Positions 1,181-62,735 of a stretch of 64,000 nucleotides of DNA are shown here, piece by piece (positions within the stretch are counted from its first letter, which is position 1; each line of letters opens with the position of its first letter). Source of the stretch: Asterias rubens (taxonomy: Eukaryota); the NCBI RefSeq assembly GCF_902459465.1, contig NC_047064.1, positions 10,565,160 through 10,629,159 of the forward strand, read 5' to 3'. The translations under genes and the position numbers were made by a program. The notes under the pieces were generated by a model. It had not been told where the DNA came from. It saw only the letters and a program-made list of their open reading frames with translations, and searched no databases.

Positions 1181-1512
1181 TTTTGAAGGCAGTGGACACT
1201 ATTGGTATTTGTCAAAGACTAGACTTCACAGTTGGTGTATCTCAACATATGCATAAAATAACATCTGTCATCGAACTTGCGAGATAATAATGAAAGAAAA
1301 AACACCCTTGTCGCAAGAATTTGTGTGCGTTTAGATGGTTAATTTCGAGACCTCAAGGTGTATATCTGAGGTCTCGAAATCAAATTCGTGGAAAATTACT
1401 TCTTTCTCGAAAACTATGGCACTTCAGAGGGAGCCGTTTCTCAAAATGTTTTATACCATCAACCTCTCCCCATTACTCGTCACCAAGAAAGGTTTTATGC
1501 TAATAATTTAGT
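1181..1512 (+). mobile_element. MITE family 1 (TTAA-flanked; TIR AGGCAGTGGACACTATTGGTAAT)
   Basis: About 25-30-bp terminal inverted repeats, ggcagtggacactattggta at the left and tagtgtccactgcc at the right, with an internal palindrome cgagacctcaNNNtgaggtctcg. TTAA follows the right end. Confidence 0.8.
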
Positions 1513-2599
1513 GTCCACTGCCTTTAAAGTTCCTAATCTCGGATTCGGATCACACTGATGACGGCCAGTCCAATATATACCATCATGATCCATTATCGGA
1601 TCACATGGCACCATGATAATGTCATTGTTGCCAGTGTGAATGGTACAAAGGAGCGGTTCTGGGATGCTATGAATTTATTTAGTATTTTTCATTACAGATA
1701 TAGAGTGACTTTTGACACCGTTCGTATACCTTGGACACGTCGTACCTTCTAACAAGACACTTCGTACCTTCTTACAAGACACTTCGTACATTTTGCCTTT
1801 AAAGGCACTGGACACCTTTGATATCAGTCTTCTTAACATCTACATAACAAAATAAACCTGTGGAAATTTGAAACTCGATTGGATGTAGAAGTTGCGAGGG
1901 AACACCCATGTCCCACAAGTTCAATGAGGTCTCGACTTCAATTCGAATTATTTTAGTGAGAAATTATACTTCTTTCTCAAACACTATTATAGTTATTTCA
2001 TATGGCCATATGAAATAACTATAAAAGTGTTTGTGGGGAGCCGTTTCTCACAATGTTTTATACTACCAGCAGCTGCCAACTACATTGCTCATTACCATGT
2101 ATTTTGAGCAATTACCAATTATATAGTTTTTTTCCGGTAAAATTCGGCAAATGAGCAGCCAATTTCATTTTCATGCGTTCGAATTAAAGCTGTTTTGCCT
2201 CTCTAGTTGTTACTGCGTTTCAAATTCAGAATTCGGCCATTCAATTTCGTTTTGAGTCGAGTCAAATTCCTTTAGCACTATGTTCAATTTTGTGTATCGT
2301 CATTCTTTTTCGAGACACACACGGCTCAAGAAGCGACTGCGAATGTGAAGTGAATGCTGCTTTGATGAATTGTTAAATTGAATGATCATTTTGTTAAATC
2401 GAATGACGCAACATTACATTTGACTAATCATAAAACGAAATCGAATGACCCTTTTCAGTAGCATTCGATTTCGCGCGAAATAGAATAGCTTGGTGGTTGA
2501 ATTGGCTGCTCATTTGCCGAAATTGGCCAAGAAAACCTATAGTATCCATTTAAAAAAATTGGGCCAAGGTCATGCACCGAATGCTCGTTACATTTGGTT

Positions 2600-2741
2600 T
2601 CACTTACTGATGTTACGTTCACAGATGTACGCAAGTTTGGTGGAGCAGGCATCGTCATTCCAAACTAAGTTTGGATCTGACGTAAAAATCATGACACAGT
2701 CCTCTTCACCAGCATTGTTAGGTTCACCAGGTGCCCAGTTC
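2600..2741 (-). CDS. C-type lectin gene: CTLD C-terminal exon with stop codon
   Basis: Minus-strand translation (T)[46 protein letters not shown] carries EPN and WND motifs, indicating a Ca2+-dependent mannose-type carbohydrate site. Acceptor is ttgaacag. The phase matches the middle exon. Confidence 0.85.
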
Positions 2742-3238
2742 CTGTTCAATGAACAAACATAGGGGATGTGACTTTGTATAATACATAATATTTGTACCCA
2801 GTCATTTTCCTTACTTTTCATTACTTCTTAAATTAGTGGTGGCTTAGTTAGTATGACACTGCTCTCGAATGGCAAAAAGGTTGGTGGTTCGAGTCCCATC
2901 CGACTGATGTGCCTTTGATCGGTCGGTGTATTTATTATGGGTAAACCATTAATTAAATAATAATAAGATTATAATATGGAAATATTTGCGGTAACACCAT
3001 AATGACTATCTCTAAATAAGCTAGGGTGGTTATGAAAAGAACCGTTTGGTTTCAACGCGACGTTTCGATCAGTGTGCTCCGATCGTCTTCTGGAGAAAGC
3101 CGGACTGTGATGCAGCAGAGACTGATTAGCTTGGTGATGCACGAAGGCGTGAAATACTGGCGGGAAACGGATGGAGTCTGATGATGCACGGTAAAACTGG
3201 ATCCTGCTCTGGAGCCATTTGAATTTTCACCCACTTAC

Positions 3239-3360
3239 GTGAAACCTTTAGCGGCAGGTGTTTGGTCATCCACCCACTTGAACTTGTTCTCCTTCGCAAT
3301 GTCGTGTAAACCGATCCATGTGTTGTCTGAAACTCCAGTGAGCACCTTCTTGAGAAACGT
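3239..3360 (-). CDS. C-type lectin gene: CTLD middle exon
   Basis: Minus-strand translation TFLKKVLTGVSDNTWIGLHDIAKENKFKWVDDQTPAAKGF contains the WIGL.D motif. Acceptor is tttcacag and donor is GTAAGT. Confidence 0.8.
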
Positions 3361-4440
3361 CTGTGAAAAGATCAGTCATTGTAAATATTTATCCACATTA
3401 CTATAATCGTTGGTATAATTAACACCGTGTCGGTGTTGTCACACATAGGTACCAAGAGAATCAATTTAACACTCCACTTTTTGAAGTGTAAATAATTTCA
3501 AACACATGATTATTCATATCAAAGTTGTGCTGTGTTGTAGCATACCACCTGCAAACTTGTTACAAATGACAGGACAATAAGATGGCATTATATCCCCACT
3601 TGATCTGCTTTGATATTTCCATTCGTTGAAAGCTGGAATGTTCCATTCAACTTGGCTCTGCCTCATTAAAAAGAACATTCCATCTTTCAACTCATGAACA
3701 TATTCGCACCATTGCACTCATAATCATTCATTATGCACAGAAGAATGTAAAAGTCAGGTCTTCATACCAGCTCTATTGAAGAAGTTCAAAGAATTGGCAC
3801 TATTTTTTTTGTTCAATGGAAATTCTGCCTTACGAGGAATGTTTAAAAGAACTAATAGACCTCCTTTTTAGCATGGAATTGTCGCAAACTCAAGGACAAT
3901 GTTCTCTTTTTCAAGGACCTTCATAACATGACGTCAATTTCGTGGATTTCACAAAGAGTTAAGACTAGTCTTATCTCGAGACTCGTCCTAGCTATAGGAC
4001 TAGCCTTCAGTTTTTAATATCTCCTCCTAAGTTAGGACTAGTCCTAACTCTTTGAGTGTAATCGACCCAAGGGGTCAGTTTCCGTACAACACTAATCTCA
4101 ACAGTTTGTGGACTATATTGTCCTCTTTTGTTATATATAGGTCCCCGGTTTGAATGTGTATACTTACTTACATACGAAGATCCATAAGTTTTGACAACGG
4201 GCCTACCTTTTATAGTGACTGACCAGCTAGAAGCTTGGTCCAATTTCGTAAAGCTGTTCGCAGAAACTAATGCTTGACAAAATATTTTCACAGCAAAAAT
4301 TGAGTCGGGCACCCGCCACAGCAATGTAAACTTAGTGTGATTTGGACACTGTAATATGTTTCTGCTTAACACTACTATTCTGTGCTAGCATTTTTTGTTG
4401 TGCTTCAGTTCTTACTGAAACACACAGCATCAATCAGACA

Positions 4441-61142: not shown

Positions 61143-61263
61143 GAAGAAATACGTCCAGAGAACATACCTAATGTGATACGCAATGAAGACTTTGTTGCTG
61201 CTATTCAGCGTGCTGGAGTGTCATTTTCATTCGATCCACAGGACAGACTATTCCGTGCCCATG
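61143..61263 (+). CDS. AGPS: AGPS exon 5
   Basis: Translation EEIRPENIPNVIRNEDFVAAIQRAGVSFSFDPQDRLFRAH matches human [33 protein letters not shown]. Acceptor is caataccag and donor is G|GTAATC. Confidence 0.9.
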
Positions 61264-62218
61264 GTAATCTTGATTTCTGTTCAACTCAAACACTGCAAAG
61301 TAAACCGTTTTTTTGGACGACGACAAATGAGTAATAATACTCTATAGCTCTTATCCCCGGTGGAATGCAGCCCCAAGGGAGGCCCCAGGACCCTTTTTTA
61401 ACCCACAGTTACCCTGGCTCACTTTCACACTGTGTCCCTATTCCATGGTGTTCCGTTGCCAAATCTATACTTGTAACCATGGAGGAAGGAAGAGGAGGAG
61501 CTCGAATGACCCGCAAAACCGTAGAGTAACAAAAAAATACCCTGACAATGCCCCTGTCTGACCAGTGGAAAAAGATAGGAGACCTCCAGCTGGACCGCTG
61601 ATTAACGAGCGGGATTAGATCTCTTTGTACAGAACCTGTGATACCGCCGCTCTGCACCGTTGCCTTCGTGTAAAGTTGAATCATTGGAGACAAGAACCGT
61701 GAATACACGCGTTTTCATTGACCGTTTGTGGTGTTTACATGGAAATATCATAGCATATTTTTACATTTTTTGCAACTTTCCAGTTTTTAAGCAGGGACAG
61801 TTGTGCCATATCACGCGATACGCGCGATGCCCACAGCATTCCCTTATAAGGAGTTGTTTACCCAAGGGTGATGGAGGGCCTTACCATTTCAGAGCTGGAG
61901 GGGTGTTGTGTGGAAAGAAATCATTGAACAATTAAAAATTTTGCATTTATTTAACTTTTTGACCGAAAGTGTTGATGTTTTTTGACCGAAAAAGGTATTT
62001 ATGAATGGGAATCAAAGTGTGTTGAATCTGTTTTCAACTAGTGGTTTAAACCCACCGAGGCCTGGTTCTTGATAATTTACCTCGACTTCGTCTCGGTTAA
62101 ATTATCAAGAACCAGGCCTCGTTGGGATTAAACCACTAGTTGAAAACCTCTTCACCACACATTGATTCCCTTAGTTTATCATTGTAATGTAATTTGGTTT
62201 ATAAATTTTCTTTTACAG

Positions 62219-62293
62219 GTCACACATTAGAGGAGATTTTTGCACTTCGAGAAGGCACTTTTGAACGTGTTCCTGATATAGTCGTATGGCCAA
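62219..62293 (+). CDS. AGPS: AGPS exon 6
   Basis: Translation (G)[24 protein letters not shown] matches human [26 protein letters not shown]. Acceptor is cttttacag and donor is A|GTAGGT. The gene continues beyond the window. Confidence 0.9.
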
Positions 62294-62339
62294 GTAGGTT
62301 CATTACAATCTTTTATTTATATTTTAATTTAATGCTTTA

Positions 62340-62735
62340 CATTTAAAGACAGTGGACACTATTGGTAATTGTCAAAGACCAGTCTTCTCACTTGGTGTAT
62401 CTCAACATATGCATGACATACATAAAAAACCTGTGGAAATTTGAGATCAATTGGTCGTTGCCCGATAATAATGAAAGAAAAAAACACCCTTGTCACACGA
62501 AGTTGTGTGCTTTATGATGCTTGATTTCGAGACCTCAAACTCTAAATCTGAGGTCTTGAAATCAAATTCGCGGAAAATTACTTCTTTCTCGAAAACTACG
62601 TCACTTCAGAGGGTGCCGTTTCTCACTATGTTTTATACCATCAACCTCTCCCCATTACTCGTCACCAAGAAAGGTTTTATGCTTATAATTATTTTGAGTA
62701 ATTACCAATAGTGTCCACTGCCTTTAAAAGTACTT
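62340..62735 (+). mobile_element. MITE family 1 copy (full, TTAA-flanked) in an AGPS intron
   Basis: Ends tTTAAagacagtggacactattggtaattgtcaaag and agtaattaccaatagtgtccactgcctTTAAaag. Confidence 0.85.

Follow-up and report, generated by a model that had tools for sequence, protein, structure and literature searches.

TTAA-flanked miniature elements in and around a PARP4-like gene of the starfish Asterias rubens: probably non-autonomous Kolobok rather than piggyBac transposons

A 64,000-nt stretch of the genome of the starfish Asterias rubens (NCBI RefSeq assembly GCF_902459465.1, contig NC_047064.1, positions 10,565,160 to 10,629,159 of the forward strand; hereafter the window, with coordinates counted from its first base) contains a PARP4-like gene and is densely occupied by short repeats that are flanked by TTAA, which raises the question of which transposon superfamily these repeats belong to. 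An earlier note, made from the letters of the window, had described them as MITEs (miniature inverted-repeat transposable elements) of the piggyBac superfamily. The MITE classification stands, and the piggyBac assignment is not supported: there are three or more related families, here termed A, B, and D, which have TTAA flanks, 5′-AG...CT-3′ termini, and exchanged internal modules, and these AG...CT ends are the signature of Kolobok elements, with the conserved terminal C and G of piggyBac elements being absent. We consider it probable, at roughly 0.6, that families A, B, and D are non-autonomous Kolobok and not piggyBac elements. As neither an autonomous partner nor an empty insertion site was found, this assignment is based on the end signature, i.e., on TTAA together with the terminal dinucleotides.

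That the repeats represent a real TTAA-targeting MITE complex is very probable. The terminal inverted repeat (TIR) string of the earlier note, AGGCAGTGGACACTATTGGTAAT, has 16 matches in the window at up to 3 mismatches, compared with none in 100 shuffled sequences, and the string given for a subfamily termed 1b, AAAGCCATTGGACAC, has 24 matches at up to 2 mismatches, with 0.22 being expected. A blastn search with the three full copies named in that note, followed by an nhmmer search with a profile built thereafter, identified 17 insertions of family A and 4 clear ones of family B, besides several related pieces. Altogether, 30 segments (about 25 insertions) cover 7,169 bp, which corresponds to 11.2% of the window. 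The three named copies do exist and have TTAA on both sides, with their starts now placed at 20704, 25654, and 62347. Families A, B, and D are short (350-380 bp), non-coding, and present in multiple copies, and they have TIRs of 24-26 nt, as is characteristic of MITEs; a tblastn search with 18 Kolobok catalytic cores detected no Kolobok transposase similarity in the window or in the fetched contigs. The notion of a dense family of short, non-coding, TTAA-flanked TIR elements is thus borne out by the 16 TIR matches and the roughly 25 insertions.

The boundaries of the elements are sharp. When 16 family-A copies were aligned together with 20 bp of flanking sequence, similarity began and ended exactly at TTAA on both sides, and no direct repeat extended beyond TTAA. 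In the window and in 14 starfish-derived metagenome contigs taken together, TTAA adjoins 17 of 27 5′ ends (16 tabulated ends plus the one at window position 14944, which is offset by a 1-base deletion) and 18 of 20 3′ ends (17 tabulated ends plus window position 40185, offset by an indel), and single-base variants of TTAA are found at six further 5′ ends. The background frequency of TTAA is 0.0072 per position, with 459 occurrences in the window. The base outside TTAA is variable on the 5′ side, and it is A in 12 of the 17 tabulated TTAA 3′ ends. Where elements abut, exactly one TTAA lies between them, at 21083-21086 (A and B), at 59806-59809 (D and D), and at 60161-60164 (D and A), and a metagenome contig (L035) has a B-A junction with a single TTAA at its positions 610-613. 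TTAA is therefore not part of each element, and such single-TTAA junctions are what insertion into a TTAA beside an existing copy predicts. A preference for insertion beside existing elements was considered and rejected, as, by our own estimate, some 24 insertions distributed randomly over the 459 TTAAs would give about 1.2 junctions, compared with the three observed (not significant, Poisson P about 0.12).

We infer from these boundaries that a 4-bp TTAA duplication accompanied insertion; it was not seen directly, because neither a paralogous nor an orthologous empty site was found. When the flanks of 15 elements were joined at one TTAA and compared with the window by blastn, only self-matches and matches within repeats were obtained, and orthologue queries from poorly conserved parts of the PARP4-like gene returned only a homologue from Lingula. 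One metagenome contig (L028) was considered as an orthologue of the locus at 20704 since the left flanks are similar, and it was rejected as the flanks fail to align. The elements of the window are as follows:

1187-1523, plus strand: family A with an internal deletion; TTGA on the left, TTAA on the right
1803-2119, plus strand: strongly diverged family A (nhmmer score 90.5 bits); TTAA on the left
7586-7948, minus strand: family A, 5′ terminus mutated and 3′ TIR truncated
11736-11886, plus strand: fragment of family B, model positions 2-156
14575-14943, minus strand: old family-A copy, 22% from the consensus; TTAA on both sides
15948-16295, minus strand: full family-A copy in intron 1 of the PARP4-like gene; TTAA on both sides
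20704-21082, plus strand: full family-A copy; TTAA at 20700-20703 and, in common with the next element, at 21083-21086
21087-21440, plus strand: full family-B copy with the TIR AGCCATT..ACACTTTCGGTA; abuts the preceding family-A copy via the single TTAA, right TTAA at 21441-21444
22463-22687, minus strand: 3′-truncated family A, model positions 2-224; its 5′ end adjoins TTAA, 29 bp upstream of an exon
23357-23718, minus strand: full family-B copy
25654-26033, plus strand: full family-A copy, 6.7% from the consensus; TTAA on both sides
27896-28320, plus strand: element with family-A-type ends and a foreign interior; flanks TTAA and TTAT
33490-33854, minus strand: old family-A copy, 18% from the consensus; flanks decayed to TCAA and TTAT
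34090-34439, minus strand: full family-A copy; TTAA on both sides
37931-38167, minus strand: 3′-truncated family A; its 5′ end adjoins TTAA, 34 bp upstream of an exon
40185-40546, minus strand: family A, 11% from the consensus
43720-44097, plus strand: family A, its interior carrying a small insertion; TTAA on both sides
57765-58068, minus strand: family B with an internal deletion
58428-58564, minus strand: 5′ fragment of family A, model positions 2-137
59433-59805, no strand assigned: family D, a long-armed hairpin MITE with a decayed left end; TTAA at 59806-59809 in common with the next copy
59810-60160, no strand assigned: full family-D copy, TTAA followed by AGGATTTTGGTAC on one side and GTATGTATATCCT followed by TTAA on the other; TTAA at 60161-60164 in common with the following family-A fragment
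60165-60240, plus strand: 5′ fragment of family A, abutting family D via one TTAA
62347-62723, plus strand: full family-A copy, 5.9% from the consensus; TTAA on both sides
62526-62561, plus strand: example of the internal palindrome, TTTCGAGACCTCA ... TGAGGTCTTGAAA, within the copy at 62347-62723

Duplication of TTAA is documented for two superfamilies, piggyBac and Kolobok, and a TTAA flank, which fits both, does not separate the two. The termini are more informative. Kolobok is defined by TTAA target-site duplications (TSDs) together with 5′-RR..YY-3′ termini, in explicit contrast to piggyBac (PMC9587614), and in Xenopus, ten out of ten full-length Kolobok elements start with AG (AGG, AGC, or AGA) beside TTAA (PMC6004289). 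All three starfish families begin with AG and end with CT, with AGA or AGG in family A, AGC in family B, and AGG in family D, and thus have RR..YY termini throughout. According to the mechanism that we propose, a DDE transposase encoded elsewhere in the genome, most likely a THAP-containing DDE enzyme of the Kolobok superfamily, would have bound the TIRs of about 24 nt, excised the element, and inserted it at TTAA, whose duplication would have left each copy flanked by TTAA.

The alternative that the earlier note had favored, a MITE of the piggyBac superfamily moved by a transposase of that superfamily (DDE_Tnp_1_7), which likewise targets and duplicates TTAA, predicts the same flanks, and MITEs derived from piggyBac do exist, among them the human MER85 and MER75. 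A close parallel is given by the piggyBac-derived MITEs of corals (CMITEs), which are likewise small, TTAA-flanked, and arranged in abutting tandem arrays in a marine invertebrate (PMC2872659), and piggyBac TIRs vary past their first base and have lengths of 7-30 bp in some structural groups (PMC5381638). However, the TIRs of 157 piggyBac-like elements have lengths of 12-19 bp (mean 14±2), their first base C is the one highly conserved position in a C[C/A/T][C/A/T]... motif, and excision needs the terminal G (PMC5381638), and the CMITEs have CCC...GGG ends (PMC2872659). Families A, B, and D all start with A and end with T, so that neither the first C nor the last G is present, and their TIRs of 24-26 nt exceed the piggyBac average. 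A piggyBac origin is thus unlikely.

The Kolobok signature could be reproduced on elements that carry their own transposase. A profile was built from 18 catalytic cores of Kolobok published with PMC9587614, which match Pfam PF20700 ('Mutator-like'), and a search of a protein database with this profile gave 340 Kolobok-like proteins; none is attributed to Asterias among the 120 matches listed. Eight genomic loci were fetched for seven of these proteins, two of them (L065 and L066) being the same locus. Copies of families A or B are absent from all of the fetched loci, including the six on long contigs (L061-L066), and therefore these loci are not from this starfish. Two of the loci carry apparently complete Kolobok elements:

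L061, 8246-12700: apparently complete Kolobok element on a large ENA contig of a eukaryote
L062, 8286-14033: apparently complete Kolobok element on a large ENA contig of a eukaryote

In both, an open reading frame (ORF) with a THAP domain and an ORF with the Kolobok DDE core lie between long TIRs of at least 60-100 nt, and the respective proteins, P0006 and P0033, match the Kolobok profile with E=1e-57 and 4e-45. The end of the L061 element reads TTAA followed by AGGGGAAGTC, with TCAA on the other side, and that of the L062 element reads TTAA followed by AGGGAACCTC, so that both of these controls end with TTAA followed directly by AGGG. Downstream in L061, a reverse-strand ORF matches P2RX7_C, which is the KolX or 'ballast' domain of Kolobok (PMC9587614); such a match is also present at the TIR-less Kolobok locus L063, whereas L062 is without it. 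A scan of public metagenome contigs with a 17-mer of the TIR gave 57 loci, of which 14 are true copies and the rest chance matches, and no longer element was found among these 57 loci.

Several points weigh against the Kolobok assignment. No autonomous element that carries these TIRs was found in the window or among the fetched loci. The strict motif of the Xenopus T2-MITEs, TTAA followed by AGGRR (PMC6004289), is matched neither by family A (AGACA at one end, AGGCA at the other) nor by family B (AGCCA), and the AGGAT of family D comes close to it. The text of the 2022 review on the distribution of Kolobok gives the canonical form for many phyla and names echinoderms only for the atypical KolobokP lineage (PMC9587614), which lowers the prior for Kolobok somewhat. 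Other superfamilies with 4-bp TSDs exist, such as Sola, and the duplication may formally be one of TA within a TTAA target instead of one of TTAA.

Alternatively, the MITEs may belong to another or unclassified TTAA-preferring group, for example of the Sola type, and resemble Kolobok in their AG..CT ends by coincidence, which would fit with the missing autonomous partner and with the fact that echinoderms are not given for canonical Kolobok in the review text. On the other hand, the combination of TTAA and RR..YY is exactly the published definition of Kolobok, and it recurs on the two transposase-bearing elements described above; we therefore regard this explanation, too, as improbable. A Tc1/mariner-type (Stowaway-like) MITE, in which the duplication would be confined to the central TA of TTAA and the element itself would extend from AAG... 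to ...CTT, is formally compatible with the flanks and with the single-TTAA junctions, and the TIR contains a CAGTG that we take to be reminiscent of Tc1 ends. However, the bases on either side of this TA, T on the left and A on the right, are conserved at most ends (17/27 and 18/20) while the next base outward varies, so that an additional requirement for a TTAA target would be needed, which is atypical for that group and makes this formally possible reading a contrived and very improbable one. A short interspersed nuclear element (SINE) or another retroposed, RNA-derived repeat is effectively refuted: a GCAGTGG near the 5′ end is vaguely A-box-like and TTCGAGACC in the palindrome corresponds to a B-box core (weakly, and by eye), but these motifs lie about 170 nt apart, the elements have no tRNA, 5S, or 7SL match at Rfam gathering thresholds, a family-A and family-B pair gave no such match even at E up to 10, the only tRNA detected by ARAGORN (at 58866) is outside the elements, which are thus free of RNA polymerase III features that either program recognizes, and the elements end in inverted repeats, are flanked by an invariant TTAA instead of variable-length TSDs, and have neither an A-rich tail nor one derived from a long interspersed nuclear element (LINE).

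Within Kolobok, close counterparts are the Xenopus T2-MITEs (Xmix, T2-C), which have the same TTAA flank, AG...CT (RR..YY) termini, and a size of a few hundred bp, and which likewise comprise many subfamilies with common ends and differing interiors, are very dense, and form old families (PMC6004289, PMC9587614). They differ in their AGGRR motif, which only family D approaches, and in their host, which in the present case is an asteroid echinoderm. A Kolobok relative that has been reported from a starfish, namely Patiria miniata, are the solo long terminal direct repeats (LTDRs) of KolobokP (Kojima & Bao 2022, PMC9587614). These LTDRs are short (about 430-480 bp), non-coding units with RR..YY termini and their own TIRs of 18-20 bp, and they occur as solo and multimer copies in an asteroid genome. 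However, KolobokP has no strong target preference (PMC9587614), whereas the elements analyzed here are found at TTAA; most LTDRs have lengths near 450 or 660 bp, compared with 350-380 bp here; and the termini of the Patiria LTDRs, GGGTGC... and GGTAGC..., are unrelated by eye. On the basis of length, target preference, and termini, an interpretation as KolobokP solo LTDRs was rejected, and no LTDR-INT-LTDR composite copies are present in the window. It is conceivable, although short of probable, that the MITEs are the footprint of a canonical, TTAA-targeting Kolobok lineage of asteroids that, going by the review text, has not been described, and whose modular A, B, and D families with swapped halves could account for about a tenth of gene-rich DNA, often 30-60 bp from splice acceptors.

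The three families are related to each other in a modular manner. The family-A consensus has 378 nt and a TIR of 24 nt with 22 of 24 positions matching, which is slightly shorter than the 25-30 bp that had been assumed before, and its two ends differ systematically, with AGACAC at the 5′ end and AGGCAG at the 3′ end (reverse complement). Family B has about 354 nt and the TIR AGCCATTGGACACTTTCGGTA, which starts with AGCCAT, and the right 150 nt or so of its model (positions 214-364, approximately) match approximately positions 1-150 of family A in reverse complement. Family D has about 351 nt, starts with AGGATT, and is bounded by AGGATTTTGGTAC and ATATCCT, and the left half of family B is related to its long inverted arms. 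The terminal 25 nt or so are common to families with differing interiors. For the subfamily termed 1b, the internal block in common with family A was correctly recognized, and it is the view of its TIR that changes: it is related to that of family A and starts with AGCCATTGGACAC, since the leading AA belongs to TTAA.

In a predicted single-stranded DNA fold of the family-A consensus, the TIRs pair with each other and a 21-bp internal hairpin is formed (-58.4 kcal/mol, z=-6.9), at the core of which lies a 14-bp perfect stem, TTTCGAGACCTCAA/TTGAGGTCTCGAAA. The internal palindrome of the earlier note is therefore present, with its stem of 13 bp extended to 14 bp within the longer hairpin. In the alignment of 16 copies, inspected by eye, the palindrome of the individual copies shows mostly random decay, with one possible compensatory pair in the copy at 40185-40546. 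Because the copies decay mostly at random, there is no sign of selection on the palindrome, and a convincing constraint was not seen, so that this idea was rejected. The palindrome may serve as a binding site, either subterminal or internal, or may be left over from the way in which the element originated.

One element of the window departs from the modular scheme. At 27896-28320, inverted family-A-type ends of about 40 nt surround a foreign interior, one frame of which encodes a LINE-tail-like peptide (..WNSLPYHIRTANTTSSFKTVLKTHLF..) that ends with ...KVWNSLPYHIRTANTTSSFKTVLKTHLFAVKQ before a stop codon. By eye, this putative peptide looks like the C-terminal tail of ORF2 of a non-long-terminal-repeat (non-LTR) retrotransposon, which suggests that the element either captured, or was interrupted by, the 3′ fragment of a LINE or SINE.

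The earlier note had also concluded from strongly conserved ends that mobilisation was recent or ongoing, and neither the premise nor the conclusion could be upheld. Within family A, the two TIRs have identities of 0.83 and 0.85 to the consensus and interior blocks have 0.82-0.88, so that conservation is no higher at the ends than inside the element. Full copies deviate by 4-22% from the family-A consensus (5.9-22% in the window), the best within-window pair is 88.7% identical, and truncation or decay of TTAA has affected several copies. The divergence, the truncations, and the lack of any elevated conservation at the ends therefore indicate an old amplification and not recent activity, and the window's copies now amount to passive DNA of introns and intergenic regions within the PARP4-like gene and around it.

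This gene was recognized by a 359-aa ORF at 45087-46166, which contains an exon that is 100% identical to residues 1291-1622 of the A. rubens PARP4-like protein XP_033624653.1. A tblastn search with this protein located about 28 exons at 15366-47265 on the plus strand, most of them with 96-100% identity. A VIT domain (Pfam PF08487, E=4e-23) is encoded by the exon at 28351-28578. Introns of the gene contain twelve of the insertions, in both orientations, and the rest lie in flanking DNA. Five MITE ends are 29-58 bp away from exon boundaries (21440/21498, 22687/22716, 28320/28351, 38167/38201, and 33451/33490, giving both positions of each pair), four of them just upstream of an exon, i.e., at the 3′ splice site, and one just downstream.

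The same MITE families occur in 14 public metagenome contigs of 1.0-2.4 kb, some of them from marine samples (L003, L014, L020, L023, L028, L029, L035, L037, L043, L046, L051, L053, L054, and L056), which come from JGI Ga0115547/48/50/55 and others and from GenBank JACSE* records. In addition, an ENA metagenome scaffold (L001) is 95.9% identical to window positions 45047-46265. DNA of Asterias or of close relatives is therefore present in metagenome assemblies, and the MITEs explain the short, repeat-terminated starfish contigs in marine metagenomes.

The MITE complex is an ordinary feature of a known kind and useful mainly in repeat annotation, and the current understanding of transposon biology is unchanged by it. 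In A. rubens and its relatives, annotation should mask these families and assign them to a TTAA/AG type that is probably Kolobok, instead of to piggyBac. With about 11% of the window, MITEs are a major intron component. Should a Kolobok partner be confirmed, canonical Kolobok would be extended to asteroids.

The window contains some further features. Another repeat family, C, of about 390 bp is present at 61795-62185 and has a near-perfect internal palindrome of about 115 bp at 62036-62150. Two of the MITE-bearing metagenome contigs (L029, positions 173-560, and L043, positions 1-87) contain copies of it with 90-93% identity, again adjoining family A. A tRNA-Ser(AGA) gene at 58866-58939 is detected by both Rfam (48.4 bits) and ARAGORN, and a tRNA-like sequence at 19581-19653, in an intron of the PARP4-like gene, is detected by Rfam only (41 bits) and could represent either a pseudogene of a tRNA or a SINE head. 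Simple-sequence tracts extend over 32485-33301 and 44542-45071, the second of them immediately upstream of the large exon beginning at 45102, and ORFs in these tracts translate into LGLGLG.../VLVLVL.../WSWSWS... and SNSNSN.../LLLL.../ATAT... repeats. Finally, a 260-aa ORF at 112-894 on the minus strand, which has no Pfam match at E up to 0.01, ends with ...HFWNSLPTPLKTSLSLSTFTKQLKTQLLQSYS and resembles, by eye, the C-terminal portion of ORF2 from a non-LTR retrotransposon.

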